The position numbers and the translations under genes are program-made. This document shows, one piece after another, positions 1,938 to 63,097 of a stretch of DNA of 64,000 nt. Source of the stretch: a virus (Duplodnaviria; Caudoviricetes); the IMG/VR virus record IMGVR_UViG_3300028591_000118, positions 1 through 64,000 of that record; one strand, written 5' to 3'. The notes below the pieces were generated by a model. It saw only the letters and a list, made by a program, of their open reading frames with translations. It was not told the origin of the DNA and did no database searches. Each line of letters starts with the position of its first letter. Within the stretch, counting starts at the first letter, position 1.

Positions 1938-3311
1938 TTAGTCCTTATTCTTTCTCTCTTCCACTGCTTTTAACCAAGCGGGAACCACTTCAACATCGGG
2001 CTGAAGATTATAAAGATTAGGAACTTCTTCTTTTACTTCATCATCGAGATTGAAATTTACTTTCTTTCTCACACAAATAACAGATAACTTACTCTCTATA
2101 TCTTCTAAAGAGTACTCTGCTTTATGCTCTATTACATCTGCCTTATCTTCATCAGACAGCATATAGAAAGAATTTATAAGAGCGTCTTTTTCTTTAGCTT
2201 CAACATTGAACTTAAATTCCTTTAATTCAGCATTCTCTTTTTCAAGTAATGAATACTTTTCCTTTAATTCGTTTAACTCATTTTCAACTAAAGAAAAATT
2301 TTCTTCAAGAGTATTCTTTGACTTTGCTTTCTTTTCATCATCATCTGTCTCGTCATCAGATTCTGAATCTTCTTTAGCATCATCAGAGTCATCCTTCTTC
2401 TCTTCATCATTCTTTTTATATTCTTCTATACTATTTTGATTTTCAGAGTTATTCTCTTCATCTGTATTGCCCATGTCATCTAAAATTTTTTCTTCTTCTG
2501 CCGCAGGTGCCTCTTCAACGACATTTTCCGCACCTTCTACAACAGGATCGACATTTTCTTCAACAACAGGCTCTACTACTTGAGTATTCTCTTCCATTGT
2601 TTGTCCTCCTTTATTTTGACATAAAGTAAGCTCTTTTAAATCTTTCATCATAGAATACAATGTCTTCGTAAAGTTTTCATCTTTACTGAAAGTAGAACTT
2701 ACATCAGGAGCAGTTACTGAAGCACCTTCAAAGCAAGGTTCTACATCCTCTCCTAAAATACATAGTTTAGAAAAAATTGCGTCATTTATTATAAAAAAGT
2801 CAATACCCTTATTATTATCGGTTGACCAATGACCCTTTAAAGTTTTCGTATCAAGTTCCATTGATTGCGGACGACCTTCATTTAAAACCTTCAAAGCTTC
2901 TTCATATTGCTCTGTCCAAAGGTATCCTTCTGTCATAAGATATGTACGAACTACAGTATTTCCAAATTCATCAGTATCTTCAAAATCTTGAAACCAAATC
3001 TTAGTATCAGGAGCGACAAATCCATAAGGAGTGGTTAAACATTTAAATTTAACTCCGTCTCCGTCTATAATCATTTGATCTCCATGATCTCTAAAATCTT
3101 CTTGCGTTTCACTATAATAACCAACAATAGGAGTTCCTGGTAAGGTTTGTGCCATCTGAGTAGCTACTTCCTTAGTAATAAAACTCCCATTGCGGTTCCC
3201 GCCTAAATATAAAACCTTAATTTCACATTTAGAAGCAAATGGACTTATTCCTTCAATATTAATGAATTCTGGAGAAGATATCGTAGCAACACTTAATCTA
3301 TTAGTAGCCAT
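1938..3311 (-). CDS. Prohead protease/scaffold fusion
   Basis: N-terminal protease-like motifs (NRNGSFI, GYLW, QSMEL, LCILGEDVEPCFEGA) followed by an acidic coiled-coil scaffold; an internal RBS+ATG (MEENTQ...) suggests a nested scaffold. Confidence 0.75.
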   Translation of the reverse strand: MATNRLSVATISSPEFINIEGISPFASKCEIKVLYLGGNRNGSFITKEVATQMAQTLPGTPIVGYYSETQEDFRDHGDQMIIDGDGVKFKCLTTPYGFVAPDTKIWFQDFEDTDEFGNTVVRTYLMTEGYLWTEQYEEALKVLNEGRPQSMELDTKTLKGHWSTDNNKGIDFFIINDAIFSKLCILGEDVEPCFEGASVTAPDVSSTFSKDENFTKTLYSMMKDLKELTLCQNKGGQTMEENTQVVEPVVEENVDPVVEGAENVVEEAPAAEEEKILDDMGNTDEENNSENQNSIEEYKKNDEEKKDDSDDAKEDSESDDETDDDEKKAKSKNTLEENFSLVENELNELKEKYSLLEKENAELKEFKFNVEAKEKDALINSFYMLSDEDKADVIEHKAEYSLEDIESKLSVICVRKKVNFNLDDEVKEEVPNLYNLQPDVEVVPAWLKAVEERKNKD

Positions 3312-3320
3312 AATTCCTCC

Positions 3321-4952
3321 TTAACCCATTGATTCCAAATTTTTAATTGTTTTTTCTGATTTTTGGTCATCAGCTAATTCCTTGCGGCCAGCACCTTCTG
3401 AAGATTCTCCAGGCTTGCCATTCCCGCCTTGGGACTGGCTTCCCGCACCTTTTACTCTATTAAGAATATTCTCATTCATAGTAGAACTCATTAAAGGAGG
3501 AATAAATACATTAACCAAATCAAGTATGTCATTTTCAAAGTAAGCATTTGCTAAAATACAACTTTGAGTTTGACCCAATGCAATTTGAGGTAACATCTTT
3601 GAGAAACCTACTTGCATTTGTTCTTTATATAATTTAGATAAATCTTTATAATTATAAATTGTTGTAGTTAATAATTGAACTTTATATTCTACCTTTTTTG
3701 GATTTTTATTTAAAGGTTTTAATAATTCATTTAAAAATTCTTCAAATTGAAGTAACATATTATACATTGTTGCTTCATCATTAAGAATCGACTTTTCTAA
3801 TGCTATATTTCCATCTGTATTAAACTGATTTTGCGATACGCCACCTTCATTATAAACTTGACGTTCAACTCTAGCTAAATCATCTGTTTGAGCCGCTGCC
3901 TGATTCTCAACCATACTCTCTACAGATACATCTGCAAATGTAGTTAATACATCAACACCAATAGCACGACTTAACATTTGAACTGCATTATTATGAAGTT
4001 GTTGTGCTTCATCTATATCAAATATTAATTCGCCATTTTTATCCAATGGCATTTGCTGAACCACAATTTTCATCAATCTCTGTAATGTCTTTTTCTTATC
4101 TAATTCTCTAGCTTCATCTAGATCAATAAGTAAAGGAATTATAGAGATAAATGCAGGATATTCTTTTCCATTAGCAGTAAATCTTACTGTCATTTCAGGA
4201 TCTAATAAATACCAACCGCCGGTATCTCCAGAATACTCTGGAGGTAGCTTTCCTTGCTTATATAAAGCATAACCTTTTCTAAATTCATCTGGAAACAGTT
4301 TTAGCACTCTCATTCTTTGAATAGTATCTCTAAACTGTTCATCAAAATACTTCATATTAAATTCTACAGCAGGCTTTTTGCCTTTAAAGAATCTAGTTCT
4401 ACAATAGTTAACTGGCAATTCTTGTAGAACAGTAGAAGTATCGTTATTATTTATTGGAACTTTATATCCATAGTAAGCTCCATAAGTTAATATCTCAAGT
4501 GCAATTTCTCCAAAAGTCTTTTTAACATCAAAATCATCTAATACTTTTAAACTTTTATGAAAACCATCCATTAATTTTTCTTTTTTAATAGATTCATCAT
4601 TTACAAAAGGAGTAACCATCCAATCGTAACGATACATAAAAGCTAAATATCTTAAAATACGAGAATAAATACCACTTATTTCATACCAGAATTCAGATAT
4701 TTCTCGCATTGCAATTAAATCTCGATTTTTAATTGACATTAAAACATGATGTTTATCACATAATCTCGGATTAACTTTCTTTAAATCGCCTAACTTAAGA
4801 ATTGCATCATCAAGAGTTTTAGCTCCAACTTTTATATTATTAAAATCTGAAGCTGGAGCTCCTTGATAACCTGTAAAGGCGGGAACGGTATTTACCTTTG
4901 GTACATTTATATTAAAGCCTTTTGCTTTAATTTCTTCAACTCTATTACGCAA
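3321..4952 (-). CDS. Portal protein
   Basis: 543 aa between terminase and protease; low-complexity C-terminal tail (GAGRKELADDQKSEKT). Confidence 0.7.
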   Translation of the reverse strand: MRNRVEEIKAKGFNINVPKVNTVPAFTGYQGAPASDFNNIKVGAKTLDDAILKLGDLKKVNPRLCDKHHVLMSIKNRDLIAMREISEFWYEISGIYSRILRYLAFMYRYDWMVTPFVNDESIKKEKLMDGFHKSLKVLDDFDVKKTFGEIALEILTYGAYYGYKVPINNNDTSTVLQELPVNYCRTRFFKGKKPAVEFNMKYFDEQFRDTIQRMRVLKLFPDEFRKGYALYKQGKLPPEYSGDTGGWYLLDPEMTVRFTANGKEYPAFISIIPLLIDLDEARELDKKKTLQRLMKIVVQQMPLDKNGELIFDIDEAQQLHNNAVQMLSRAIGVDVLTTFADVSVESMVENQAAAQTDDLARVERQVYNEGGVSQNQFNTDGNIALEKSILNDEATMYNMLLQFEEFLNELLKPLNKNPKKVEYKVQLLTTTIYNYKDLSKLYKEQMQVGFSKMLPQIALGQTQSCILANAYFENDILDLVNVFIPPLMSSTMNENILNRVKGAGSQSQGGNGKPGESSEGAGRKELADDQKSEKTIKNLESMG

Positions 4953-5037
4953 AGGGATACCTCCTTAAAATCTCTATTTTAATTATAGCATAAATTTTTT
5001 TAAAAATCAAGTAATATAAATCTACTTATTTTTAAAA

Positions 5038-5394: not shown

Positions 5395-5458
5395 ATTTCC
5401 ATCCTTTACTTAAATATATTTTTTAAAGTAATTTATTTATCTTGTGTTGCCCAACTTT

Positions 5459-7237
5459 TTAACTAAAAAATAACATTTTTGATATATCCCTCTTCCGCCT
5501 TTTCCTAGCTAAATCTTCTTCCTTTTTAATATAATACAAACCATAAATAAAAGCAGAAAATTTATCCTTCTTAATACCTTTATTACTTTGTTTAAGAATA
5601 ATATTAATACCTTCATTTTCTTCTGTAAGGTTTAACAGCTGTTCTCTTAAAATAGAAGTTAAAACAAAAGGCTGTAAATATTCATTTCTTTGATCTGAAT
5701 TATAAGTTTGTCCTTTTTTAGTGGAAAGCAATTTAGCTTTAGCCTGTTGTTCATCAATCAAGAATTTCACCTTCCCGCTTGACATTTGCGTTTGAGTATA
5801 AGAATAAGCTTCTGTATTAATTGGGGCATTCGCTTTTATTAAATACATTGCATTTTCTTCTACTCCAGGCCCTTTAATCTTTTTATAAAGATTAACAGTA
5901 TCTTCTGCAGTCCCATCTTCAACACCAAATGGCGGCAATTCATCTCCTGTTTCCGGATCAATTTGTGCTTTTGTCATAAAGTCAATCAATCCAACACCAA
6001 GACCATTTGCATCAATAGCAAGAATTCTTGCTTTATATTTATAATATAATCTTTTTAAATTAATAGCTTGTGTTTCAAAATCTTCCGCCTCATAAGTATA
6101 AATATTAACAAGTGTTTTTAAATGAGATCCCTGAGGTTGCGGAGTTGCTTTAAATATACATGCCTCTGTTGTACATCCAATACGCCCAACGTCCACTCCA
6201 ATAACATAATAAGCTGATTGAGACGATCTCCCGCTATATTCATACTCAGGTTGTAATAAAACTCTATGTTTATCAAATTTTTCAGCAGAATAAAAAGCAT
6301 TTTCTACTGAACCAGACCAGATAGATCTATATTCACGATCAAATGATTCATCATTGTAGGTTCCTTGAATTTTTAATTGATCTACAAAATCTTCATCAAG
6401 TAAACCTTCTGTAACAGGAGTTTCATAAGTTCCTCCAATTACCATTACTTCTTTTGGATTTATTACACTTTGAACTAAAAGTTCTACAAGCTTATCATAA
6501 GCAAATGAATTTTTCCATCCTGCTGTAGTAATATAAATCTGACTCTTATTTACATTCTCTTCTTTATGGCGGGAGCCATCTGGTAGAAGTCTATCGACGT
6601 TAGTCGTAGGAATAATAACTTCATTTAAAATATCACCATCAATTAGTACACATTCCTCCATAAGTCCGCCTGTCCGCCTTTGACCTCTGGAAGATTGCCT
6701 TGCCGCCAATATGTCTATACTAGAACCATTTTTAAAAACATATTTAACATCATCTTTAGATTTCTTTGAAACACCACGATCCCAATTTATTTCATTATTA
6801 AGTGCGGGAATCAGCTTACATATTTCCTCTATCTTAGCTATTGTGATACTTGCGGCTTGCTCCTTCCCGCCAGTCGTAACAAATAATTGACTATTTGGAT
6901 AAAGAATGCATCTAAGCATTAAAACCATCATAGATAAAAATGATTTTGAATATGCTCTAGGGAAAGTGGCATATACATACCTATGACGCATTACAACTCT
7001 TAAAAATATCCTTTGATAAAAATAAAAATGAAAATTATTTGGATTATGTGGATTGCTTTCTCCATTCTGATAATCATTATTTTTAAGCATTGCATCAACA
7101 AGATAATCAGGATATTCTCTATAAAAAGAAATTAAATTTCTTAAATGCGGAAGTTGTTCTCTAAGTCTTTCTTCAGATAAACCTTGTTTTAAACTATTCC
7201 TAGATTCGGAAATATCTAATAAATTCTTTAAACTCAT
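5459..7237 (-). CDS. terL: Terminase large subunit
   Basis: Walker A-like PRAYSKS, Walker B-like LMEE, motif III ITTAG, RNase H-like nuclease motifs GVDVGR and KDKFSA. Confidence 0.9.
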   Translation of the reverse strand: MSLKNLLDISESRNSLKQGLSEERLREQLPHLRNLISFYREYPDYLVDAMLKNNDYQNGESNPHNPNNFHFYFYQRIFLRVVMRHRYVYATFPRAYSKSFLSMMVLMLRCILYPNSQLFVTTGGKEQAASITIAKIEEICKLIPALNNEINWDRGVSKKSKDDVKYVFKNGSSIDILAARQSSRGQRRTGGLMEECVLIDGDILNEVIIPTTNVDRLLPDGSRHKEENVNKSQIYITTAGWKNSFAYDKLVELLVQSVINPKEVMVIGGTYETPVTEGLLDEDFVDQLKIQGTYNDESFDREYRSIWSGSVENAFYSAEKFDKHRVLLQPEYEYSGRSSQSAYYVIGVDVGRIGCTTEACIFKATPQPQGSHLKTLVNIYTYEAEDFETQAINLKRLYYKYKARILAIDANGLGVGLIDFMTKAQIDPETGDELPPFGVEDGTAEDTVNLYKKIKGPGVEENAMYLIKANAPINTEAYSYTQTQMSSGKVKFLIDEQQAKAKLLSTKKGQTYNSDQRNEYLQPFVLTSILREQLLNLTEENEGINIILKQSNKGIKKDKFSAFIYGLYYIKKEEDLARKRRKRDISKMLFFS

Positions 7238-12846: not shown

Positions 12847-13197
12847 AATTAGGCGGGAAGGCATTCCCGCCTATTTCTTATTTTCTATAATTTGAAAAAA
12901 TTAAAAAAATTTGATATAATATATATAGAAAATAAAAAATAAATAAAAATTAAATTCCTATAATCCTTTTCTTTTTGGCGGCACGAGTGCGGCTCCTTTT
13001 AGTCGTGCAAGTGCCGAATTTTCATTATACCACAGTTTTGCACATTTTGTCAACTGGCAATTTGCACAAAGATTTAGATCCGTGGATCCCGCAATTTGTG
13101 CAATATTTTTTATCTAAACCCTTGCAATTTTCTGTCCGTAGTGGTATTATTATTACAGAGTTAAGGAACACCACCAAGTGAAAGAGAGGTAGTTAAA

Positions 13198-13625: not shown

Positions 13626-14011
13626 CATGCAGGTCAACAAAAGGAGAATAAAATGAGTACAACGGAAATGCTTAATATCTCAGTAGCCTTAAATATACTT
13701 TGGCCTATTGTGGCAATAATTACATATTTATTTTGTTAGGCGGGAAGCGCTTATATTGATTTAGCGGGAAAAATAATTCCCGCTATTTTTGACGGCCCGC
13801 ATGCGCATCACACACCTCGCGCAAGGGCCGCATTTTGCGTATAGGCTGGTTTTTAAGTTTTTTAGATCCACATTGCGTATTGTATATATTGCATAAAAAA
13901 TCCCATTTCTTTTTGTGCAACTTTTTATTAAAAAATCCTTGCAATATATACACGGGTATGGTAACATATAATCAAGGAAAGGGAAACACCCTAGGAAGTG
14001 AGGTAATTAAG

Positions 14012-16031: not shown

Positions 16032-16195
16032 TCAAAAGGTGCGGGTTTGTCCCGCACCTCTCTTTTATTTTTAAGATCGAACATCTGTTTGGTTGCACGT
16101 GCCCCCGAACAAACTTTCGATAATTATTTTTGAAAAAAGTGTTGACTTTTATAATTAGATATGTTAATATAATTACAGAAAGAGAGGTAATTAAA

Positions 16196-26526: not shown

Positions 26527-27033
26527 ATTACATTACCCTCCTTTGCATTTTATTTCTTTGCATTACATATTTAATATAAAAAATATAACACCTAAATTAT
26601 TAAGTGTTGACCAAAAAATTTTAAAAGGTGCGGGAAGGCTTGCTTTGAAGCGCCTCAATACCAGCTTTCCGCATATCTATATAAAGTCCAACAATAGGAC
26701 ATAATAAAATTAAAATCCCCTATATAAATATTATATCAAAAATTTTAATTCTTTTCGATCATATTCCGCTTTATCTTTCGCTTTTTTCGCGGGAATCCGC
26801 ATTTTTCGACAAATCAAAGAACCTTAAAAAACTGTCATTTTAACCCATTCCCGCACATTTTAATATCTTTATTGAATTTTATAAAAAATTATGATATAAT
26901 ATTACTATAAAGAAAGGAAAATAATTATGATTATGGAAGTATTAAGTGATATAAGTATTATCTTACTTATTGCCACAGTAATTATAGAAACTATTATGAA
27001 TGATAAAACAAATAAAATAATGGAGGGTATTAA

Positions 27034-30000
27034 ATGACTGATAATTGTAAAAATGACTTTGTTTTCGTAATAATATGGGCTATAATTATTATTATTCTAT
27101 TAGGTTGTTATGATAATAGAAAAAAAGAAAAAGAATTAAAATATACACAAGAATATTTAGAACAGAGTGAGTATAGCTGTTATCCATATTATGAAAAAAT
27201 ATATAAAGGAGAAGCTAAATGAGTATGTACGGTGATGATAAAAATGGTGGTGAGAAGAATGGCATGTATGATGAAATAAAATGGTTTCTTGAAAATCATT
27301 CTATATCTGAATTATTGGAAATAGTTGCAGATGTAATTAGATATGAGAGAGAATAAGGAGAAGTGGAATGTTAAAAATAAATAATCAATGTTATTGTGAA
27401 CGAGGAGGAGTATTACTTTCAAGTGTATTTGAATTTGAAACTATGGCAATTAATGCATTTAACAAATTAGACAAAATTAATACCATAATACACAATACGC
27501 AAGGAATACAAGAAGATGTTATCAGATATCAAATGATATGCGAGGTTATGAAGGATGACTAATCAAGAAGCAAAGGAAATACTAATAGACGAAAAGAATA
27601 ACTTAAAAGAAAATCCCAATGTAATAGTAGAACAATGCCTATATGACACTTTAGATACGTCGATTCGAGCTCTATTAGCATTAGACAAAGTAATAATCTA
27701 CTGTAAGCAATCATCAAGCGCAATATTACCCGAAGATATTTTAAGTCTTATAAGAGGCGAGAATGTTGAGATTGAAACAGATTATGAGTATAAGAAGTTT
27801 GAGCCTTGCTCCGATGCGATAAGTCGGCAAGCAGTGCTTAACCAAACATATCTTTGGAGTAAAGACGAGTTTTTAAGGATTACAAATCCATTTGATTATT
27901 TGCGTAAAAGAATCAATGATTTACCACCCGTCAATCCGCAAGAGCCAAAGACAGTGCTATATAGCGGGGACGGATATGCAGACGGATATATGGTCTATGA
28001 TATGGCAGAATGTCCAAATTGCGGTTATAAGTACGAAGATGGTGATAAGGATTGGGGATTGCCGTTCTGCCCAAATTGCGGTCAGAAATTGAATTGGGAA
28101 GGAGAAGCGGAATGAATAAGATAAAGCAGATAATGGAAGAGATAAATATAATATCAGACAAGCTTGCACCTTGTTCAATAATTGATTGTGCAACAGATGA
28201 AGAATGTTTAGTGATACCAGAAGAAAGTTTAAAGATAATTTTGGAAAAATACCTAAAAGAAGAAATCGAATGAGATGTAAATGTGGAGTAACAATGATAT
28301 GGAATAGCGATTATGTCAATGGGATTTTCATAAGTTGGTATAGTTGTCCTATGTGTGGGTATGATACACGAAATCAGCAATATATATGGAGTAATAAAAC
28401 ATTTGTGGAAGGAGAAACGGAATGACTAATGGAGATAAATTTTTAGAAGTATATCACAATCTATATGTATGTGTACTGTATCTTGACTTTAACTACATAC
28501 ACGTAAGGGATAGGAATGTCGAATATGATATAGACGATAATAAAACTTGTATGAAAATGCCGATAGATTGGTGGAATGCAGAATACGAGGCACTAGAGCA
28601 AGATTCAAAGACAGATACTTGGAGTATTAAAGATGTTGCTGATACTTTAGCAAAACACGGACTAATAGTTGAAAGTGAGGAAGCATGAAAGAACAATGGA
28701 TTGTCGAAGCTGAATAAAACGCAAAAGACTTGGCAGAGATACTATATGAGTAGATTATCGATGAAGCAGATGATATGTGTGTTGATAGACAGTGGTACTT
28801 TGAAAAAGTCCTTCAATATATGAGGGCAGAAAGTGAGGAATAATATGGAAGTCATTTGTGATAATACAGGTGTTCCTGGTGGATCTGAAACATGTAAATT
28901 ATGTGTATCACATGGTTGTGAAGGATATAAACAAGCAACAAAACAGGACATACATAAAAAAGATAAACATAAATCGTTGATAACAAGCATAAAACAGAAA
29001 AGCGAGGGATGAATGACAGTAAAACAGTTGATGCGGAAATTGAAATCCGTACCCGAAGATTATGAAGTAACAATATTCAATACAGATTCCCTTGTTAATG
29101 GCACATACAAGGTAGATGTAATAGAAATTGATGAGTTTGATAAACAAGTTGAAATATCATCGGAAAACAAATACTTATGGAATTGGGAAAAACAAAAGTG
29201 GGAAAAATAAAGCAGAAAGTGAGGATAAGTAAATTATGTTAATTAAATTTACTAAAGATTTCGCTAATAATTGGAAAGCAGGAGATATTGTAAAAGCTAA
29301 ATATCTCAAAAAAGGTGAACTAATTGTTGATGAGGTAGCTCAGGTTGATATCAAATTGTTATTAAAACATTGTAAAATCATTTCAGAAAGTGAGGAATGA
29401 ATGGAAGGATATAAACCTTTGACACCAAGTTTTAGAACAGAAATTGATGATGCTTTAGAACGACAAGTAGAGGAATTAAAGACCTGTGAGCCTAATGTGT
29501 TGGTCATGGTACAAATAAACGCATTGCAAGCATATAAGAGAATAATACACGAATTACCAGATGGCTACCCTATACCCATCAGAAAGAGAGGATAAGGAAT
29601 GATACAAATAGTAATCGGTAATATATCTTTTTATGCTGACTGATATATTACAAATCTAAAAGAGAAATCAATCCAGTTCTATCGAAAAAAGTCTGATTTA
29701 GATTATATTCCACCGATTAAGATTAAAGATAATATGTTATCGGACTTTGGAAAAGAGTTACTATTGGGAAAGAAGGAGGCAAGCAGGAATGAAATATATA
29801 GCAATTATTGATACAGATGATTATAAAGATTTTGAATTCTTTGAAGACGGTAATGGAAAATATATGGCTGTAAAGGATGCTGGTGCTACGGCAAATGGTG
29901 GATGGATACCACTATATTTTAAGGTACTAGAGCAAGAGCTAATACTTGATAAGCCACATATAAAAGGTGATTACTATGATGGTTTTAAGAATGGATTGAG

Positions 30001-32410
30001 GACAGCCGAGTGGAGATATGACAAGATAAGAACCGAGATAGAGCAGACAGCAGATGAAAAACAGAAACATGACGAAAAATGGGCATTGGGTTTGCGATAT
30101 GCGGTTAAGATTATCGACAAGTACAAGGCAGAAAGTGAGATTATAGAAATGGTGTGTAAAGCTATTGACAAATATAAAGTAAAAAGTGAGGAATAAAAAG
30201 AATGACACGATTTAGTATGTTTACTGATGAAGAATTAGATGCTATGGAGTCAGCATTTTGTAACGAGGGATTAGGATATCTTGTTGATGAAATTCGCAGA
30301 GAAAGAAGATACAGAGAAAACAGATAAGGAGAAAGAGGAAATATGAAAAAGATACGTCTATTCTCTGCTAAAGCGATAAAAGACATCGAGGGAGAAGAAG
30401 TCGAACTATACGTCAATTTCTACTTAGTATTGAACAGGAACTATGTTTTCACGTTTTTGATAGACACTCCGATTTTGGTGTGCGGTGACCGGAATCCTAT
30501 TAAATTATGGAAACGGTTTCTGATAATGCTTGAAGAAGCAACTGTTAAATATATGCATAGATATGAAACTTATATTTCGGCAAAATGAAATAAAAGGAGG
30601 AGTAATGAATGAAAGTAACATCAGACACATTGACAGTTACATTTGATGGTAGTTTAGATGATGCAGCAGGAATATGCGTTTCAAGAGTAGTCAATGGAAA
30701 CGTTGTTATCTTGAAAATGGAATTGGGAGAGCAAGCCGATATTTTATATCGTCTTTTAACCGAGCAAATGACAAAGGCTGAGATTAAAGTAGAAAGTGAG
30801 AACATATGACAGATTATAAAGCCTTACTAAAAGGCTATCCAATTTATATAGCCACTAAAGAAATTCAGCGAAAAAAACACCACAAAAAACGTATTAACAA
30901 GAAGTGGCGAAAGAGATATGGAATGATTGAAATCAATTATATGCCACATGGAGAAGTAATAATATTAGAAGAAGATTATCCTGTTATAAGCATGACAAAG
31001 AAAACATACCGAGAATTGATAGGCAGAAAGACTCCTGAAGTCTGTGAAAAAATAGAAAATAAATTTGAAACAAATAGATAAAGCAATTATAGCTCTTGCA
31101 AAATTAGACCTTGTTAACACTACAATTTATTGCACACAAGGAATACAAGAAGATGTTATCAAATATAAAATGATATGTAAGGTAATGAAAAATGATTAAT
31201 AATTATAATTGTAAAACTTGTAATAAATGGTCTAAATGTGAATGTGGAGAAAAAGGATATAAAAATAATACTTCAATAAGATATTTAGTTGGAGTATGTA
31301 AAAATTATGTTCTTAATGAATTACCAAATATTAATTCTCAAAAAATTGGATATTGGAAAGTAAATAGTAACAAAAATATTATTATATGCTGTAATTGTGA
31401 AACATGGTTTAATAATGATCGCTTACAGCTTATGCGGCATTGTCCATATTGTGGAATAGAAATGCGAGGTGCATATGAAACTATTAATTGATATACCTAA
31501 TAATGACTATAAACATATAAAAGAATATTATGAAAAAAACGATATTGTTGAAGCTACATATAGTTATATTTATTATGGTATACCTCAAAAAGTTGGACAT
31601 TGGATAAAATTAAAAAGTAAAAATGGAATATATGTTAAACCGGCAGAATGTTCTATATGTGGTATGCAATTTTTTAATGATGGCAAAGATAATTATTGTC
31701 GAAGTTGTGGAGCGAAAATGGAGAGCGAAAAATGAAATTTCATGATTGTGAAATATACAAATGGAAACAACGAATAAATATATTGCCAACAATAGTTTTA
31801 TTTTGGAATTCCGCAGTATATTTGAAACATAATTTTATAATAGAATTTGATTGGTTATGGTTTCATGGGGAGTTTATATGGACAGAGGATGGTAAAGAAT
31901 AACAGATATAAAACTATCAGTAAATGAAATTGCAAATATATATATAATATTATTATTAATAAATATAATGAATTTACAAATAGACCAAAATAATGTCTTA
32001 TTATTAAAAAATAGGAGGAATAACAAATGTTATTTTGTAGTGGAGAATTAGTTGCACAATTTAAAGATAATGATGATGAAGGTACGTCATCATTTTATCA
32101 AATAGTTAAAATTCTTGAATATAAACCAGAAGGTATGCGTGATAAATATTTAGTAGAAGATTATTATGGAAATAAATTTGAAGAATATAGTTCTAATCTT
32201 ACTAGAAATACTATGCATATAGATAATTGGGATGCTATTGAATATCATTGGGAACATAAATCATTGGATAAAATTAAAAATTATTAATAAATATAAAGAG
32301 GAAAATAAATAATGATATTATCAATTCTTTCATCAATAGTGATATTTTTAATGGGTAGTATATTTGGTTTTCTAATGTGTGCATTATTAAGTGCTAATAA
32401 TTACAAATAA
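27034..32410 (+). other. Mosaic run of short, tightly coupled hypothetical genes, several with Zn-ribbon CxxC pairs
   Basis: ORFs at 27034, 27368, 27555, 28422, 29013, 29401, 29789, 30343, 30609, 30806, 31192, 31475 and 32027; overlapping stop/start junctions; remnants between them. Confidence 0.7.
27555..28115 (+). CDS. Composite protein with a C-terminal Zn ribbon
   Basis: DAISRQAV segment, then CPNC...CPNC. Confidence 0.65.
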   Translation: MTNQEAKEILIDEKNNLKENPNVIVEQCLYDTLDTSIRALLALDKVIIYCKQSSSAILPEDILSLIRGENVEIETDYEYKKFEPCSDAISRQAVLNQTYLWSKDEFLRITNPFDYLRKRINDLPPVNPQEPKTVLYSGDGYADGYMVYDMAECPNCGYKYEDGDKDWGLPFCPNCGQKLNWEGEAE

Positions 32411-32494
32411 ATAATTTAAAATAAACCTCTTTTCTTTATTTTTATAAAAAAATATGATATAATATTTATAGAAAATAAAGAAAAGAGGTTTATT

Positions 32495-33166
32495 ATGTTT
32501 CAGATACCAAAAGAAATCTTAAATCTTTATATCCCATATGAATTTGGACAGGACGTAGAAACTGCAGATGAAACAGACGCTATGATTGAAGTTGAAATGC
32601 AACTTCCCGCAGAATGGACTTATACTTGGGGTGCAACTCAATTTGTTATAATGTCTAAAGAATGGGATTATGTGTTCAAAATTCCTTTTAATGGAGAATG
32701 GCTTTTTGATTATAATAATGATGAGTCTTATTTCAAAGAATTTGATCACAATTATGGTGAAAGAGCATTAGAAAGATATAAACAGGCGGAAGATGCGGGA
32801 ATCGCTTTCCTCTTTGCCCCTACTACAATAGCTTGTTATAGTAAAAATGGTTATCCTATTTATATTCAGCCTAAAATAGAAACATTTAGAGAAACTTGTG
32901 CTAAACATTATCAAGAAAAAACAAAAGAAGAGAAGGACAGCATTAAAGATTTTCTTATGGAGAATTATAATAGTCCAACAAATAGACTTGCTATTGATTG
33001 GCAATATGATGTTATTAAATATTATGGAAAACAAGTTCTTAAAAATCTTCTTGACTTTATTTATGATTATGCAACACAAGTAACAGATCTTCATTACGAT
33101 AATATTGGTTACAATAAAGAAGGTAAACCAGTTATACTTGACTATAGTGATTATTTAGAAGATTAG
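32495..33166 (+). CDS. Protein kinase-like fold protein
   Basis: GATQFV..YVFKIP, catalytic DLHYDNIG and ILDYS motifs. Confidence 0.7.
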   Translation: MFQIPKEILNLYIPYEFGQDVETADETDAMIEVEMQLPAEWTYTWGATQFVIMSKEWDYVFKIPFNGEWLFDYNNDESYFKEFDHNYGERALERYKQAEDAGIAFLFAPTTIACYSKNGYPIYIQPKIETFRETCAKHYQEKTKEEKDSIKDFLMENYNSPTNRLAIDWQYDVIKYYGKQVLKNLLDFIYDYATQVTDLHYDNIGYNKEGKPVILDYSDYLED

Positions 33167-35292: not shown

Positions 35293-35385
35293 TAAAAAGG
35301 CGGGATGCGTATCTCCCGCCATTTTTGATTTTTATAAAAAAATATGATATAATATTTATAGAAAATAAGAAAAGAGGTAAATATT

Positions 35386-40608: not shown

Positions 40609-41024
40609 GGCAAAAATATCTTATTCTATTAATTAAAAATTAAAATATAATAAGATTTTATGTAAAAGAGGTGGATGTGATGCTCATCCTCAAAGTAGTA
40701 TATAATGATAAAGCAGGGTACTGCGAACCCCCATTTTCATTTAGCAACCTACGCCGTTATAATAAGTCCCCTTCAGCGGGAGGGGCTTAATAAATATCCC
40801 GCTTTTATATACTGAATAGGGCAGAATGATATAAAATATATCATCCTATTGTTATAAATCGTGGAAGTTGGATGGAGCAGAGTAGCTGAAACTCCGCAAC
40901 TTATGAGCTATAACCTACTTAAGGGTGGAAGACCTTATTGAAGTTCATTACTTCGAGTAGGTTTTTACTATTATAAAACTGTCATTTTTCTCTTGTATAG
41001 GCTTAGGCAGTAAGGAGAGGATAA

Positions 41025-41744: not shown

Positions 41745-41879
41745 AATGTGGTGGCGGAATAGGTAGACGCTATGCTTATAGATGCGTAAGTAAATAGTGC
41801 AGGTGATTGTGGTTTGAGTCCACATATGCATTGGATAAAGAACCTGCTTATTGTAAGGTGCGAATCCTTACCCACATTT
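41745..41879 (+). ncRNA. tRNA-like RNA 1 (class II scaffold, degenerate anticodon arm, very long variable arm)
   Basis: Acceptor AATGTGG/CCACATT, D-arm GGCGGAATAGGTAGACGC, T-arm GTAAGG-TGCGAAT-CCTTAC. Confidence 0.7.
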
Positions 41880-43500: not shown

Positions 43501-44144
43501 AATATTGTTAGTAAAATAGTGTATGTATGATACCTCGGTGCAGATGGTCTAATCAACTTGCCGAGATACTTACTAGGCGGCTGTAGGATAAGTCCTCCGA
43601 AAACAAAAGAAAGAGTAGAAAGGATACTTTTTACAAATTCAATTTTCTTGATTATGAATGATAGAAAGTGACTCAACAGAGTTCATTGTTGCGTAAGTAG
43701 TACAACATTATATGATGTTAGTATAGTCTGCTTATGGCTAACGAAATAGACGCTCCCCGCAAAGGAGAAAAATCCTGCACACTGTGGGCTGGTAACCCAT
43801 ATGTTACTGTAGGAAACACCAACCAAGTTAGTTTGTCGTGATACTACAGAAATGTAGAGTATAACATAAGCAGGAACTGCCAGTAGCTCAAGACAAAAAG
43901 AAGATTTTAAAGAAGAATAGGTCAAGTAAGTTATTTTACTGTTAAAATTGCTGAACGATGGGTGATGGCTGCGGGTACCAGTCCCGCATAGGTTTTGGCT
44001 CTTTCTTATGAAAGAGTGGCATGAGAAGCGTAGTCTAGCTAACTATTGCTCAGCCTTATGTCCCTATTAGTACGATAAACAGTAGTATAATGAAGTATGC
44101 TGAATAAAAGGCAATTATATATATGCTATTTTGCTAATAATATT
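43501..44144 (+). ncRNA. Large structured RNA, ROOL-like
   Basis: ~640 nt with no credible ORF; 31-bp terminal stem whose deviations are all G-U compatible; own SigA promoter (TTGACA at 43450); embedded among tRNAs. Confidence 0.65.
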
Positions 44145-45203: not shown

Positions 45204-46589
45204 ATGGGTTTATCTGCTGTAACATATGCCCTTAGTAAAAAATATACAGATGAAACCGCTATTCAATTTGGTGGTTTAAAAGGAGCTCCTTGTAAAGTTC
45301 AATCTGTTGTAAAAACTGATGGCAGATCAGTTGTTACTTTAGAATGGAAGAACGATGCGGGAGATACTAGAACATCTGAAGTATATGTAAATGATGGTGT
45401 TAGCACTTGGATTAGCGGAAGAAGCTATATAATAAATGATGTAGTTGTCAATGATGATAAATTATACATTTGTAAAGTAGCTAATTCAGATGTGACATTT
45501 GATGAAAATAAATGGGCATTAGTAAGTGGCGGTGTGGAAGGTGGAGATTTCCATGTTATTGATACTTTAGCACAACGCCCTAGTGATTTAACTGCGTCAG
45601 ATAGAAAAATGTATTACTGTATTGCAGACAGTAATTATTATGTTTGGGATGGTACTCAATGGAGTATCGCTAACGCAGGAATTAAAATTAGAGAATTAAC
45701 AAAAGAACAATATGAAGCACTTACCCCCGCAGAACAGATGGATGGCACAATCTATTTTGTTACAGACGAGGCGGGAGGCGGTGGAGGTTCTGCAGAATTA
45801 ACTGATGATTTAACAGTTGTTAAAGCAGTTGGTGGTATTGCTGTGGGAACTCAATATGCAGCAGGAACTTCTTTAGAGGACATTTTACGAGAAATGTTAT
45901 CTCCTGTATTATATCCTACATTTACGAATCCTAGTGCAACAATTTTCGCAACTGGTGCTAAATTACTTGAAACAGGTTCTAGTCTTAATACTACAATGAC
46001 TATTACATTTAATAGAGGAACTATCAGTCCCGCATATGGCACAAGCGGAAAGCGTGCCGGTGCTGCAACTGGATATTCTCTTAATGGAGGTACTACTCAA
46101 GCAGGCAACACATTTAGTGTTACAGTTACTTCTGCACAATTAACATATAGAGGAACAGTTGATTATGCGGCAGGTGAACAGCCTAAAGATAGTATAGGGC
46201 GAGATTATTCTACACCCCTTCCCGCAGGTAGTGTAAATTCTAATAGTATTACATATGAATTTGTAGATGCTATGTATGCAAATACATCTTCTGCAGGAAC
46301 TATGACTAAACAAGCTCTTATTAGTAAAAGTACTGGAACAAAACAGTTTGACCTTCCCGCAACAACAGCCACAGATCCTGAACAGATTGATGTCCCTGGA
46401 TCATGGACAGTTTCAAAGATTGAAGTTTTAAATACTTTATCTGGTAAATGGGAAGATGCGACAAGTCAATTTACAAAGACTACTACAACGCATGATGATG
46501 CGGCAGGTGTAGTAGTTAGTTATAATAGATACACGTGTAACTTAGGTATGGCTCTTGGCGCTCGTAGCGTTAGAGTACTTTGGAGTTAA
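45204..46589 (+). CDS. Fibre/adhesin-like structural protein
   Basis: T/G/S-rich beta sequence; C-terminal ~260 aa paralogous to the C-terminus of 46603. Confidence 0.65.
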   Translation: MGLSAVTYALSKKYTDETAIQFGGLKGAPCKVQSVVKTDGRSVVTLEWKNDAGDTRTSEVYVNDGVSTWISGRSYIINDVVVNDDKLYICKVANSDVTFDENKWALVSGGVEGGDFHVIDTLAQRPSDLTASDRKMYYCIADSNYYVWDGTQWSIANAGIKIRELTKEQYEALTPAEQMDGTIYFVTDEAGGGGGSAELTDDLTVVKAVGGIAVGTQYAAGTSLEDILREMLSPVLYPTFTNPSATIFATGAKLLETGSSLNTTMTITFNRGTISPAYGTSGKRAGAATGYSLNGGTTQAGNTFSVTVTSAQLTYRGTVDYAAGEQPKDSIGRDYSTPLPAGSVNSNSITYEFVDAMYANTSSAGTMTKQALISKSTGTKQFDLPATTATDPEQIDVPGSWTVSKIEVLNTLSGKWEDATSQFTKTTTTHDDAAGVVVSYNRYTCNLGMALGARSVRVLWS

Positions 46590-56613: not shown

Positions 56614-56918
56614 TAAATGGCGGGAATGAGTTTATACTCATTCCCGTTTTTTTATTGACTTTTTTGAAAATTTTTGATATAATATATATAGAAAGTTAAA
56701 AATAAAACTTTTCATTTCCTTTGCTTTAGTTTAAAATAAACTAAAGGAAATAAATTATCATAGCTTAAAATATGATAATGATATTCATGGTATTTTTGAT
56801 AGAAGCGGTGGACAGTGTTTTCAATTAGTCAGGTTCTTCTTTTTAAGAAGAAGTAAATCGTGTGATCTTAGATCCCCATACCGCTGCTGAAAAAAATCTG
56901 GCTAAGAAAACATATCTT

Positions 56919-57174: not shown

Positions 57175-57218
57175 AAAAAAAATAAGGCTCGATACAATTA
57201 AGTATCGAGCCTTTTCTT
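57175..57218. terminator. Bidirectional intrinsic terminator between the tRNA-Gln unit and fliD
   Basis: AAGGCTCGATAC...GTATCGAGCCTT flanked by A and T tracts. Confidence 0.8.
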
Positions 57219-58606
57219 TATACTGTCATTCCAAATAAACCTGCTAATGAATTAGTTTGATTTTGCATTTTTGATAATGCAGTTTCCATTCTAGCAAATT
57301 TTTCATAGTATTTATCTTCCATTTCAGTTATCTTTTTATCCCATTTTTCAATCTTCTTAGTGAAATCATCATAATTAGATTTCATTTCTTTATCATGGAA
57401 TATTGTATAAGCACTATTATAGCTAGTTGATCTCATTCTATCATTTAAATCATTATACATTTTAGATGATAATTGAGTTATAAAACCTATAACTCCATTA
57501 GGATCATCAGCAATAGCTTGCTTTAATTGCTTTTCGTCTATATTATATACACCACGCTCATTTTGTTCTGTAGTAAAATAATTTCCTGTAGTAATTCCAA
57601 TTTTAGCAAGACTATATTTTTCTCCATTAATCATATATGATTGCATCATGTTATTCTTAAATAATCTACTTATATCACCAAGTAAACTATCTTTACTTAA
57701 TATACTATCTTTAATAAGTTTTTCCCATTCATCTGCTTGCTTATCGCTAATAGCATATCGTTCATCATCTGTCAATGGTTCATAATTTGATTTCTTTGCA
57801 TTATAAGCAGTATCAATCTTTCTAATAACATTATTATATTTTTCAATAAAATCTTTTACTATATCAAATATTTTATTATTAGATTGCTTATTAATTGTAG
57901 TGCTTCCCGCCTTAAATACATTTATATTCAAATCATTAATTTGAAAAGTATTTTCTTCAGATTGGAATTCCGCACCATTTAATTCAATAATAGCATCTTG
58001 ACCAACTTGTTTTGCGGCGCCCTCGCCTAGCCCTAAAGCTTCTAAGATCTCATCATTACCTTCAATAGAAAAGTTACTTTTAAGACCTGTTTTGCGAGAA
58101 GCTAAAAACAATCTACCATTACGTTCATCAAAATTTGCTTTTAAACCAACTTCACTAAGTTTCTTTGCAACATCACTCATTGACATATCTGATGTAATAC
58201 TTATATGCTTTTCCATTCCCGCATATTTTACAGTAATATCATCATTAATTCCAATAGGATAAGATTGCTTTACCTTAGCACCTGTTAAATAAGTATTAGT
58301 TGCAACTTGCTTAACAGTTAAATTTTGAATTCCGCTAAAGCTAGATCCTGAGACACTTGCTATCTGTTCATCCGCAATTTTAACATCATCTTGAACAAAA
58401 GAAGTCTCTAGTCTAGTATTAGACAAAGTATTTGTAAAGAATGAATTAATTTCTTTATTCATATCTTTCCAAGCATCTTGTTTATACTCTAATGTCTTCT
58501 GTTGTTTCCAGATCTTATCTCTACGCGCGGTATATGCAGTAGTCATCTGTTTTATGATACTCTCTGTATCAAAACCAGAAATCATTCCAGAAATTCTCAT
58601 AGCCAT
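57218..58606 (-). CDS. fliD: Flagellar filament capping protein (HAP2) homologue
   Basis: N-terminal RISGMISGFDTESIIKQM...QDAWKDMN; V.QVAT; GQDAIIELNG...EENTF; YEPLTDDE...WE; C-terminal EDKYYEKFARMETALSKMQNQ. Confidence 0.9.
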   Translation of the reverse strand: MAMRISGMISGFDTESIIKQMTTAYTARRDKIWKQQKTLEYKQDAWKDMNKEINSFFTNTLSNTRLETSFVQDDVKIADEQIASVSGSSFSGIQNLTVKQVATNTYLTGAKVKQSYPIGINDDITVKYAGMEKHISITSDMSMSDVAKKLSEVGLKANFDERNGRLFLASRKTGLKSNFSIEGNDEILEALGLGEGAAKQVGQDAIIELNGAEFQSEENTFQINDLNINVFKAGSTTINKQSNNKIFDIVKDFIEKYNNVIRKIDTAYNAKKSNYEPLTDDERYAISDKQADEWEKLIKDSILSKDSLLGDISRLFKNNMMQSYMINGEKYSLAKIGITTGNYFTTEQNERGVYNIDEKQLKQAIADDPNGVIGFITQLSSKMYNDLNDRMRSTSYNSAYTIFHDKEMKSNYDDFTKKIEKWDKKITEMEDKYYEKFARMETALSKMQNQTNSLAGLFGMTV

Positions 58607-59081: not shown

Positions 59082-59086
59082 TATAA

Positions 59087-60168: not shown

Positions 60169-60170
60169 AA

Positions 60171-60666: not shown

Positions 60667-60702
60667 ATGTTGAACAAAAATTCAGAAAGAGAACTTGCAT
60701 AA
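60667..60702 (+). pseudogene. Orphaned original 5' end of the RNA ligase gene (MLNKNSERELA*)
   Basis: Has its own GAGG RBS and aligns with MLDKSGIRQLC, the start of 61776. Confidence 0.6.
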
Positions 60703-60783
60703 AATTTTTGGTCAGTCCTCGTTTATTATCTTTCTTTAACTTTTATATATTTATGAAAGATAAAATGAAAGGAACAAAATATT

Positions 60784-61773: not shown

Positions 61774-61775
61774 TT

Positions 61776-63023
61776 ATGTTAGATAAATCAGGCATTCGAC
61801 AATTATGTTATGTAGTTAATGTTGATGAGATAAAACCAATTCCCGGTCGTGATAGAGTAGAATGTGCTAGAATTGGCGGTTGGACTTGTATGGTTCCTAA
61901 GGGGGCTTTTCAGCCAGGAGACCCCGGTATATATTTTGAGATAGATAGTCAGGTACCTCTTGATAATCCAGTATTTGAGTTTTGTGCGAAATATAAAGGA
62001 CATATCAAGACACAGAAGTTTAAGACTCCTGAGGGACAGTTCTGGTCACAGGGGCTCCTGATGCCTGCCGCAGATTTTGGTTGGTTTGTAGCCTATACTG
62101 ATGAATATAATTATATCTATGATAAAGAAGGTAACTCTTATCAGCCTGGGACTGATTCTGCTTTTCTTACTGAAAAACTTGGTGTAACTTATTATGAGGT
62201 AGAAGATAATAAGAGAAAAGCAAAAGTAAATCCTGACGCTAAGATAAATGCTGCTTTAGCTAGACATCCTAAATTAGCAAAGAAATATGGTAAATTTATT
62301 AAAAAGTATAAGTGGGCAAAAGCTATATTCTTATTTATCTTTGGAAGAAAGAAACCTTCTAGCTGGCCTGCTGAAGTAAAAAAGACTGATGAAGAAAGAA
62401 TAGAAAATAGACTCTTTACTCTTGAAGCTAGAGATTTGAAATGGATAGCTACTGAAAAGATAGATGGATCTAGCTCAACTTATCATCTTCGTAGAGGTAA
62501 TAAGTTTAAGAAACCCGAATATTTTGTATGTAGCAGAAATGTTGTTTTTGATACTCCTGAAAAAGCTAAAAAGAATTATTATGCTGATACAATAGGAAGT
62601 AATATTTGGATTGAAATGTCTGAAAAATATGACATAAAGAATAAACTTCAGCAGTTGCTTGATGAAAGACCTAGTGCTAATTGGGTTACCCTTCAGGGAG
62701 AAACTTTTGGGGCAGGCGTTCAGAAGCGTGATTATGGTATGAAGGATCGTGACTTTAGAGCATTTAATCTTATATATTCAGATTGTGGTAGAGTTGATAC
62801 TCTTACTATGAAAAATATACTGGACAAAGTGGGAATACCTTCTGTTCCTATCATAGCAAAAATTCAACTTCCTGTAACAATAGATCGGTTAAGAGATTAT
62901 GTTCATAAGCAGAAGTCTGAAATAGATGGCGGGATGCGAGAAGGCATAGTCTTCCGTAGCCTTGATGGAACTGACAGTTTTAAGTGTGTAGATCCAGAGT
63001 ATTTAATGAAATATCATGGATAA
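61776..63023 (+). CDS. RNA ligase (DRB0094/Rnl2-like)
   Basis: IYFEIDS N-domain, motif I TEKIDGSS, LQGE, REGIV and SFK. Confidence 0.88.
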   Translation: MLDKSGIRQLCYVVNVDEIKPIPGRDRVECARIGGWTCMVPKGAFQPGDPGIYFEIDSQVPLDNPVFEFCAKYKGHIKTQKFKTPEGQFWSQGLLMPAADFGWFVAYTDEYNYIYDKEGNSYQPGTDSAFLTEKLGVTYYEVEDNKRKAKVNPDAKINAALARHPKLAKKYGKFIKKYKWAKAIFLFIFGRKKPSSWPAEVKKTDEERIENRLFTLEARDLKWIATEKIDGSSSTYHLRRGNKFKKPEYFVCSRNVVFDTPEKAKKNYYADTIGSNIWIEMSEKYDIKNKLQQLLDERPSANWVTLQGETFGAGVQKRDYGMKDRDFRAFNLIYSDCGRVDTLTMKNILDKVGIPSVPIIAKIQLPVTIDRLRDYVHKQKSEIDGGMREGIVFRSLDGTDSFKCVDPEYLMKYHG

Positions 63024-63097
63024 TTGCAAGCGGGAGGGATCTCCTTCCCGCTTGACAAAATAAAAAATTTTTGTTATAATATAATAAAGATAATAAT

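Follow-up and report, generated by a model that had tools for sequence, protein, structure and literature searches.

Sites and structures in the window

The window analysed here comprises 64,000 nucleotides of a phage record (G000) of 122,314 bp that is 78% complete and carries about 170 predicted genes by our count; the genome is 68% A+T. An exact search of the window returns 90 copies of GCGGGA/TCCCGC (54 on the + strand, 36 on the − strand), which fall into three classes by our own gene calls: (i) 46 coding-sense, (ii) 14 coding-antisense, and (iii) 30 intergenic sites. The field of sites and its characteristic members are as follows.

1978..63051 (both strands): field of the 90 exact GCGGGA/TCCCGC sites
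3422..3446 (−): two direct copies 19 nt apart, within the portal gene
5773..6870: large terminase gene, with five sites (5773−, 6229−, 6569+, 6804+, 6865−)
12850..12873 (+): terminator hairpin GGCGGGAAGG-CATT-CCCGCC, convergent pair; −18.3 kcal/mol, z −4.9
13762..13785 (+): terminator hairpin, convergent pair, with an extra copy at 13740; −14.3 kcal/mol
16037..16059 (+): one-armed terminator hairpin with stem GGTGCGGG/CCCGCACC; word on the − strand at 16050
26855..32604: longest word-free stretch, 5.7 kb of small genes, within the range of random placement
35299..35320 (+): −15 kcal/mol hairpin where two genes converge, formed by a convergent pair
40775..40803 (+): weakly folding convergent pair, long loop; z −0.75
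43982..43987 (−): sole copy inside the ROOL RNA gene (43510-44132)
45771..45776 (+): typical in-frame site, GCG-GGA (Ala-Gly), in gene 45204-46589
46028..46033 (−): typical antisense site within the + strand gene 45204-46589, whose coding strand reads TCCCGC
56619..56648 (+): terminator hairpin with an exact arm GCGGGA and an imperfect arm TCCCGT; −20.7 kcal/mol
63024..63058 (+): −24.7 kcal/mol terminator hairpin formed by a convergent pair, z −7.6

Convergent GCGGGA..TCCCGC pairs number six in the window and 11 in the genome. The seven window hairpins that were folded (five convergent pairs and two one-armed stems) reach −11 to −25 kcal/mol, in keeping with a preliminary description that saw the word built into terminator stems. 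Intrinsic-terminator features, namely a GC-rich stem and a downstream T run where genes end, are confined to some of the intergenic sites, and 60 of the 90 sites lie inside genes and show no extra folding. Each of the five terminase sites arises by synonymous or tolerated changes at residues that are conserved in relatives. A link to tRNA-Gly acceptor stems was discarded, as the window holds no tRNA-Gly or tRNA-Ala gene.

Abundance and codon usage

GCGGGA is confirmed to lie about 15-19 times above chance in this AT-rich rumen phage. Dinucleotide-preserving shuffles of the window yield 6.33 ± 2.42 sites with a maximum of 12, and the whole record holds 168 (97 on +, 71 on −) versus 8.8 expected from base composition; the backwards control word occurs 20 times in the record. 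The resulting density is one site per 0.73 kb, with a mean spacing per strand of 1.26 kb (97 sites) and 1.72 kb (71 sites). Coding sequence carries 60 of the window sites, compared with 10.2 ± 2.6 (maximum 18) in 300 synonymous-codon shuffles, and shuffles of the same type give 11.8 ± 3.0 genome-wide for the 84 sense sites and 5.1 ± 1.9 for the 38 antisense sites. The excess noted in the preliminary description, within genes, between genes, and in both orientations, is therefore real and persists under the codon- and dinucleotide-preserving null models that it had proposed as a refutation test. Its count of about 80 was slightly low, and its example coordinates are correct except for 63029, which is truly 63030.

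The word is produced by rare codon pairs in all frames and on both strands, and many sites require two or three simultaneous changes away from preferred codons. Ala-Gly is written GCG-GGA in 45 of 148 pairs genome-wide (3.9% expected), and Ser-Arg is written TCC-CGC in 11 of 65. Of the peptide contexts in which the word could be encoded, about 19% contain it, with an occupancy of 84/451 in sense and 38/189 in antisense. Both strands carry the word to the same degree, wherever it is compatible with the encoded protein or the spacer. Other GC-rich words of equal composition are not enriched, and single-transition neighbours of GCGGGA are not depleted.

Could terminator or RNA structure, or a compositional bias in codons, codon pairs, or CpG, have produced the excess as a by-product? 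Such an origin would suit the 30 intergenic sites, many of them in terminator stems, the many coding sites in Ala-Gly codon pairs, and the otherwise depleted CpG of the phage. It is extremely improbable and, as a sole cause, refuted: the excess stands more than 15 standard deviations above both the synonymous-codon and the dinucleotide shuffles, antisense occupancy equals sense occupancy, coding sites lack extra folding, equally GC-rich words are at ordinary levels, and phages SPbeta and Enterococcus phage H1, of similar composition, have no GCGGGA excess.

The word acts at the level of DNA rather than protein or RNA, because sense and antisense occupancy are equal, no segment of the genome has strand polarity, and local folding of coding sites equals that of GC-matched controls. 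RNA structure within genes and strand or position polarity along the genome were thus both rejected as explanations. Since unusual codons write the word on both strands and relatives over-use other words, something appears to read the DNA itself. The earlier proposal of a sequence-specific DNA cis-signal is borne out by the rare codon pairs in all frames and on both strands and by the lineage and phage specificity of the word. The functions it had listed are candidates for what this signal does.

Anatomy of the word and dialects of relatives

The six letters GCGGGA form the core of a longer, polar DNA word, T-GCGGGA-R-SSSS-T, which spans about 11 nt. The block consists of T(−1), a head of specific sequence on the 5′ side, and an unspecific GC-rich tail, free of sequence preference, that ends sharply at +5 and is followed by T(+6). 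Each of the three site classes has the same block, and so do three relatives. The preliminary description had seen neither this block, nor the clade-wide GCGG core, nor the other words of relatives.

Comparison of genomes shows that the word is one dialect of a clade-wide habit: most relatives have a GCGG/CCGC core, some a GCGC core, and the extensions of these cores vary by lineage. One relatives' word, GCGGCCGC, has 36 sites versus 0.1 expected, and further dialects are GGCGCC, TGCSGCA, and CGCGGC. GCGGCCGC, GGCGCC, and TGCSGCA are palindromic, and some of the relatives' words are 8-bp palindromes in more than 300-fold excess. Dialect can change between close relatives: locus L001 is as close to the phage as L002 across the portal, TerL, and neighbouring genes, and has 0.07 sites per kb versus 1.4 in L002.

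No gene was found to co-vary with dialect in the assembled data. Per-gene identities of L001 versus L002 contain no dialect-linked outlier, no gene is exclusive to GCGGGA-type loci, and the alignment of the primase zinc-binding domain has no clear correlation with dialect. Donor mapping of motif-free patches in relative G014 was abandoned, this relative being too diverged at the nucleotide level. A literature search found no published report of such words in phages.

Candidate hosts and the Chi hypothesis

The check for host enrichment suggested earlier was carried out on candidate hosts, which are known from binning only. GCGGGA is not in excess in five MAG bins containing contigs of related phages, nor in 151 order genomes and 16 genus genomes of one bin with a GCGGGA-type contig, and candidate host genomes carry it at a frequency >5 to 100 times below that of the phage. 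A host-wide word is thereby rejected for these binning candidates. Because of this rarity, the word may mark phage DNA as own.

The Chi words known from Firmicutes include a GCGG or GCGC stretch. A Chi-like word would attenuate host AddAB/RecBCD, protect linear phage DNA, and promote recombination-dependent replication, and host-specific dialects would be expected of it. Chi-rich phages do exist and carry a Chi site roughly every 1.9 kb (Zheng et al. 2025, PMC12315714), and phages LLS and P1 resemble the present phage in carrying a short word far above chance (PMC12315714). The Chi reading is nevertheless disfavoured and very unlikely. Chi in LLS and P1 is co-oriented (20/23 sites in LLS) and abundant in the host, and these phages lack recombination modules (PMC12315714); in the present phage, orientation bias is absent everywhere, the 151 + 16 candidate-host genomes, known from binning, have no excess, and the phage has Sak4-like (AAA_24), RecJ-like, and RecD-like genes. 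Relatives, moreover, use palindromes. The earlier argument against a classic Chi site, made from the absence of polarity, is upheld and is joined by the candidate hosts without excess and the phage's own recombination genes.

Spacing, turnover, and a possible molecular drive

Regular spacing was rejected: the coefficient of variation (CV) of site spacing is 1.27 in this phage (0.8 to 1.1 in relatives), i.e., random to clustered. The spacing and strand check proposed in the preliminary description thus yields irregular spacing and equal occupancy of the strands. Sites have no detected link to promoters or genome ends. Among relatives sharing the word, the probability of a site given a G000 site is 0.27 versus 0.09 otherwise, an odds ratio of 3.7 compared with 4.9 to 12 for ordinary codon pairs. 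Sites are accordingly conserved no more than neutral codon pairs. Density is kept and position is not, the sites turning over at the pace of neutral synonymous positions. Copies of the word are scarce in blocks that carry homing endonucleases and flagellin. Strain variants within sites are absent among the 40 listed, which come from assembled contigs and have no power.

The main rival to a functional word is a drive like that suspected for the highly iterated palindromes (HIPs) of cyanobacteria, in which sequence-specific mismatch repair or gene-conversion bias turns near-cognate sequence into the word, which itself needs no function; Elhai put forward a methyl-cytosine-dependent repair model for cyanobacterial HIPs (PMC4390886). 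Turnover at a neutral rate with maintained density, the equal effect on all frames, both strands, and spacers, and the paucity of sites in recently mobile genes are what it would produce. The relatives' GGCGCC and GCSGC are also alternate HIPs tied to cognate methyltransferases (PMC4390886), and many of the words are classical restriction-type specificities. We nonetheless consider this drive rather unlikely. DNA methyltransferases of four known families (PF00145, PF01555, PF02384, PF02086) and Vsr (PF03852) were not found in the 78%-complete G000 or in the relatives searched, which include two 100%-complete genomes, so that a phage-encoded methylase or VSP repair was rejected. In addition, single-transition neighbours are undepleted, many sites need several simultaneous changes, and a bias from host enzymes should enrich the candidate hosts, which are not enriched.

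Candidate readers of the word

In the best reading, GCGGGA is a private self word whose density is maintained by ongoing pressure and whose reader is a phage factor. That its density is upheld by selection through a phage-encoded reader is plausible, at a little below an even chance. Against selection, sites are not conserved beyond neutral, and a non-selective drive gives the same result; no reader has been identified, and the lack of a dialect-co-varying gene in the assembled data counts against selection and the primase reading below.

The most concrete candidate, though an unlikely one, is the SPbeta-type replication module, with its primase, DnaB, and zinc-finger proteins. The phage encodes a DnaG-type primase (genome 87838-88968; phrog_47 match, E 2e-32) whose zinc-binding C-H-C-C motif is kept in the alignment, its own DnaB replicative helicase, and fast-evolving zinc-finger proteins at 85264-85791 and 87382-87801. 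For the two zinc-finger proteins, structure prediction run without alignments gave a mean pLDDT of 41 and is unusable, and PDB sequence searches were empty. The word would serve as a preferred start site for lagging-strand primers: the template TCCCGC-A would give a primer starting pppGCGG, and the GC-rich tail, itself unspecific, would lend stability to an RNA-DNA hybrid about 11 nt long in a 68% A+T genome.

The polar word, its fixed 5′ start, and the Okazaki-size spacing per strand favour such a role. Like sites of the DnaG/T7 gp4-type primases, the word is polar, occurs on either strand, and is spaced per strand in the Okazaki range, which as quoted takes in both 1.26 and 1.72 kb; the purine start and the preferred base just 3′ on the template resemble the cryptic nucleotide, and in T7, GC-rich flanks favour longer primers (PMC8599759). 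Known primase sites, however, are tri- to pentanucleotides rather than 6 to 8 nt and are not reported as hyper-abundant, lineage-private words (PMC8599759). The random to clustered spacing counts against priming, and the relatives' 8-bp palindromes look more like targets of dimeric dsDNA binders or of restriction-modification-type enzymes. SPbeta, which has the same type of replication module and no word excess, counts against the module as reader.

Alternatively, a dsDNA protein outside replication may bind or modify the word for coating, protection, packaging, or as a hypermodification mark, its density again being selected. Strand symmetry, phage exclusivity, the palindromic 8-mers of relatives, which suit dimeric binders, and a footprint of about 11 bp, one helical turn, are in line with this possibility. 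We regard it as unlikely, given that neither a candidate gene nor a methyltransferase was found, that a GC-rich tail devoid of sequence preference is unusual for base-specific contacts, and that sites are unlinked to promoters or genome ends. Of the functions named in the preliminary description, a self-modification site finds no support in gene content, and the word could be linked to no chromatin or packaging protein.

Returning to the replication module, a more speculative and quite doubtful extension is that each lineage of the rumen/gut clade owns a private self word read by a fast-evolving protein of this module, for which the candidates are the zinc-binding domain of the primase and the zinc-finger proteins, YorH-like and neighbouring. 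Reading of the word would start or load replication on phage DNA only. If true, genome and replication enzyme would co-evolve a code that neither the AT-rich host chromosome nor competing phages could use.

Relation to other genome-wide words

Few signals are read on bulk DNA across a whole genome; hyper-abundant short words belong to them, HIP1 above all and, to a smaller extent, DUS and Chi. HIP1 has had no known function for some 30 years. The DUS of Neisseria and the USS of Pasteurellaceae are words of cellular genomes, driven by biased DNA uptake in competent bacteria. As with DUS/USS, the phage word occurs about once per kb in both orientations and inside genes, its inverted pairs are re-used as terminators, dialects differ between lineages, and density rather than position is kept; in contrast to them, it appears confined to the phage, with hosts being binning candidates. 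Chi at about one per 1.9 kb is sparser than GCGGGA at one per 0.73 kb (PMC12315714).

The cyanobacterial HIPs, HIP1 (GCGATCGC) and its alternates GGCGCC, GCsGC, and rCCGGy (Elhai 2015, PMC4390886; PMC5861425), are the closest in several respects. Both are short GC-rich words in 15- to 300-fold excess in all reading frames and spacers, the phage word being at least 15-fold enriched in three frames, on both strands, and in spacers (168 vs 8.8). Both have replacement words by lineage, with phage relatives using GGCGCC and GCSGC. Unlike HIPs, the phage word belongs to a phage and not a cell, is asymmetric rather than palindromic, has no cognate methyltransferase gene of the four families searched in the 78%-complete genome, and is missing from the candidate host; its sites are conserved no more than neutral, where Xu, Lawrence and Durand 2018 (PMC5861425) found conservation.

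The phages offer a small system, with genomes of 120-145 kb, no methyltransferase found, and a candidate host without the word. Close relatives differ in their word, some having asymmetric 6-mers and others 8-bp palindromes, which supplies natural specificity swaps for comparative mapping. These features narrow the possible readers to roughly 170 genes, the predicted gene count of the 78%-complete record. The words are also a strong compositional marker, by which contigs can be assigned to phage lineages and recently exchanged modules detected.

Abundance of GCGGGA

GCGGGA/TCCCGC is the top over-represented hexamer of the phage genome. The window contains 90 sites, where dinucleotide-preserving shuffles give 6.3 ± 2.4; the 122,314-bp record contains 168, with 8.8 expected from base composition. 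The record is linear, about 78% complete, and 32% G+C, the window being its first 64 kb, which is present in full in a run from a sheep gut metagenome, its possible source; gene calling in this analysis yields 177 genes over the whole record, which is 85% coding. The sites of the record comprise 84 sense, 38 antisense, and 46 intergenic occurrences. When synonymous codons are shuffled gene by gene, 11.8 ± 3.0 sense and 5.1 ± 1.9 antisense sites are expected in the record, and 10.2 ± 2.6 coding sites in the window, where 60 are present. The excess noted in the preliminary description is thereby borne out and, because it outlives the codon shuffle, it also passes the test on which that description had staked it, namely disappearance under a codon- and dinucleotide-preserving null model. 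The remaining words made only of G and C are far less enriched: CCGC reaches 3.7-fold and CCCGC 8.7-fold, and GGCC and CCGG stand at 0.5 of expectation.

CpG is depleted overall (0.62) and is strongly avoided in A/T context throughout the genome (ACGT 0.21, TCGA 0.33, and ACGTT with AACGT 0.16 of expectation). Together with GGCC and CCGG, these avoided words look like ordinary restriction avoidance beside the enriched GCGGGA.

Pressure on DNA

Occupancy, defined as the share of peptide windows able to encode GCGGGA synonymously that actually use it, is 84 of 451 (18.6%) for sense and 38 of 189 (20.1%) for antisense contexts, and the two strands are similar in each genome segment, leftward-transcribed blocks included. 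The seeming sense-strand bias of the sites is opportunity bias alone. Ala-Gly pairs are written GCG-GGA in 45 of 148 cases (3.9% predicted from codon usage), Ser-Arg pairs TCC-CGC in 11 of 65 (about 0.3% predicted), and x-Pro-Ala contexts xxT-CCC-GCx in 16 of 62. Folding at coding sites (−10.0 and −10.6 kcal/mol) is no stronger than at GC-matched control positions (−10.1 kcal/mol). Intergenic sites fall in strong hairpins (−16.2 kcal/mol); six of the seven intergenic hairpins folded in the window are terminator-like, and the one at 40775-40803 is weak (z −0.75). The pressure targets DNA.

Flank information around the word is one-sided. The word is preceded by T (52%) or G (27%) and followed by a purine (82%); positions +2 to +5 reach 58-71% G+C without favouring any 4-mer, and position +6 is at background level again and mostly T. 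This profile recurs in the sense, antisense, and intergenic classes. Among one-letter neighbours, only those changed at position 5 or 6 are still enriched (e.g., GCGGAA 4.8-fold, GCGGCA 4.3-fold), which makes GCGG the hard core. The transition neighbours of GCGGGA show no depletion. A comparable block (GCGG, three bases, SSSS) surrounds the favoured words of three relatives (G012, G007, and G006).

Turnover of sites

A codon alignment of the terminase shows sites created by synonymous changes at conserved residues, as in the peptide TTGGKE, where this phage has GGC-GGG-AAG and the relative locus L001 has GGT-GGT-AAA. Some sites arise through tolerated amino-acid changes, and locations vary among relatives. 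Across orthologous word-compatible positions of all alignable genes, relatives that share the word carry it with a probability of 0.27 where this phage has a site and 0.09 where it does not (odds ratio 3.7); ordinary codon pairs are more inert (odds ratio 4.9 to 12). Relatives with other words have GCGGGA at 2.4-3% of positions, with or without a site in this phage. Sites favour slightly less conserved peptide positions, and their spacing is random to slightly clustered. The density of GCGGGA is maintained, its location is not. Occupancy is roughly even genome-wide and low in the homing endonuclease, RNA ligase, and flagellin blocks, as expected if these were incoming DNA still unconverted. 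Besides the methylase and Chi readings discussed below, the possibilities are (i) a phage-encoded reader, with selection acting on site density, and (ii) a repair or conversion bias; a repair drive is judged unlikely.

Dialects among relatives

At least 141 relatives are present in IMG/VR, at 64-88% identity and for the most part as fragments; the large terminase shares 43% identity with Enterococcus phages H1 and EF1 and Geobacillus phage E3. GCGGGA as a favoured word is shared by about 18 of the 80 relative loci fetched and not by the rest. Two loci that are equally close to this phage (portal, TerL, and two adjoining genes) have 0.07 (L001) and 1.4 (L002) sites per kb.

Other lineages prefer other GC-rich words. 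G013 uses GCGGCCGC (36 sites versus 0.1 expected), which spells 20 of its 49 Ala-Ala-Ala tripeptides. G011 favours GGCGCC (81 sites), GCGCGC (71), and GGCGCGCC (11), G012 and G010 TGCSGCA (about 50 sites per genome), G006 CGCCGC and GCCGCA, and G007 CGCGGC. CCGC is enriched 2.7- to 5.4-fold in every relative except G011. The partial genome G014 (C1:1-60000) is rich in GCGGGA at 0.7-14.8 kb and 29.4-35.2 kb but devoid of it across the intervening 14.6 kb, which suggests mosaic exchange between lineages of different dialects.

No excess of GC-rich words was found in one 50-kb stretch each of the distant cultured kin H1 and SPbeta, where GCGG occurs 44 times versus 60 expected and 62 versus 84, respectively; these phages thus serve as a control against compositional artefact. 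That the word is a by-product is scarcely credible.

In G006, nine copies of GCCCGGGC (0.05 expected) lie within 10 kb (C1:62152-72254), mostly beside A/T runs in apparent spacers, and may form a separate repeated regulatory element. In-frame TAG codons occur in L012 (seven in the terminase, L012:4866-6608), G006, G010, and G011. The first two in the L012 terminase align to conserved Glu, so these four relatives use a recoded TAG; the standard code lowers their coding density to 63-75%.

Candidate hosts and known systems

The metagenomic bins in which terminase relatives occur carry the labels Erysipelotrichaceae, Bacilli, Eubacteriales, and Clostridium, host assignment being by binning alone. 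These bins are poor in GCGGGA, one having 16 sites in 1.5 Mb. Counts of the word in each of 151 genomes from the order of a bin with a GCGGGA-type phage contig run from 3 to 200, never above 0.25 per kb, and are about 1- to 3-fold those of a control word. The 8-mer GCGGGAAG is found 0 to 4 times in each of 16 genomes of the bin's genus, 12 times in the bin itself (partly on the phage contig), and 46 times in this phage.

The nearest known phenomenon is the HIP (highly iterated palindrome) family of cyanobacteria, whose alternates include GGCGCC and GCsGC. The likeness lies in the size of the excess, its independence of reading frame, and the replacement of words between lineages. Unlike HIPs, the present word is asymmetric, its genome is viral, and the candidate host lacks it; its sites are not conserved above neutral, whereas HIP conservation was found by Xu et al. 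(PMC5861425). A phage methylase or Vsr, a repair enzyme, would fit the Elhai model of HIPs (PMC4390886). A further difference is that no cognate methylase was found, the search covering four methyltransferase families and Vsr in this phage and its relatives, two complete genomes included.

Known Chi-rich phages lack recombination genes, have hosts rich in Chi, and have sites that mostly point the same way (20 of 23 in phage LLS) (PMC12315714). Here the sites are not co-oriented, recombination genes are present, and the candidate hosts, assigned by binning, show no excess of GCGGGA; a Chi-like signal is very improbable. The DNA-level cis-signal other than Chi put forward in the preliminary description is supported as a general idea. 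No published accounts of such words in phages were found.

Candidate readers

The record encodes portal and large terminase; a sigma-like factor; gyrase A and B and an NAD-dependent ligase; DnaB, a DnaG-type primase, and Pol III alpha; RecJ-like, RecD-like, and Sak4-like AAA_24 proteins of recombination type; anaerobic NrdD, PhoH, ClpP, and dUTPase; RNA ligase and a kinase/phosphatase; several GIY-YIG and HNH endonucleases; and flagellin and FliD. Its replication module (genome 83020-100647) has the SPbeta order yorF-yorG(Sak4)-yorH-yorI(DnaB)-yorJ(primase)-yorK(RecJ)...yorL(Pol III alpha), with one added zinc-finger gene between helicase and primase. Candidate readers are the primase and three fast-evolving core proteins:

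Genome 87838-88968: primase
Genome 85264-85791: YorH-like zinc-finger protein
Genome 87382-87801: zinc-finger protein, gene between DnaB and primase
Window 32495-33166: core protein

That the phage encodes a reader and selection acts on density has a chance somewhat short of even. Priming start sites are a tentative, rather doubtful case within this reading, and the two estimates overlap because priming is one form of phage-encoded reader. Since the word is polar in shape, the most concrete candidate is the primase and helicase module that the phage itself encodes. Four features point that way: the block of about 11 nt, its specific 5′ head, immediately preceded by a favoured base, its GC-rich tail without sequence specificity, and the per-strand spacing of 1.3 to 1.7 kb. 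DnaG-type primases recognize a short template word whose 3′ base is not copied, GC-rich flanks have influence, and Okazaki starts are 1.5-2 kb apart in E. coli and 1-6 kb apart in T7 (PMC8599759). However, a primase of such long specificity would be without precedent, the primase alignment shows no residues that vary with the dialect, and the relatives' palindromic 8-mers better match dimeric double-stranded DNA binders. Another double-stranded DNA binder or mark is possible, if on the unlikely side.

Other features

Further features of the window and genome are as follows:

Window 43510-44132, + strand: full-length ROOL RNA (Rfam RF03087, 229.8 bits), inside a tRNA island of tRNA-Asn, two tRNA-Glu, and tRNA-Met; the Lys, Gln, and Thr tRNA genes of the window are outside this island
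Window 41745-41833, + strand: 89-nt tRNA-like gene (ARAGORN) with a four-base anticodon (atag), without amino-acid assignment
Window 57218-58606, − strand: flagellar cap protein FliD, full length with both FliD_N and FliD_C
Genome 64757-66031, + strand: flagellin (Flagellin_N and Flagellin_C), in a GCGGGA-poor block
Window 38215-39081, + strand: core protein near the tRNA island, about 30% identical among relatives, with a C-terminal Cys cluster

The predicted fold of this last protein resembles peptidase U32 (TM 0.71), a family that includes oxygen-independent RNA hydroxylases.
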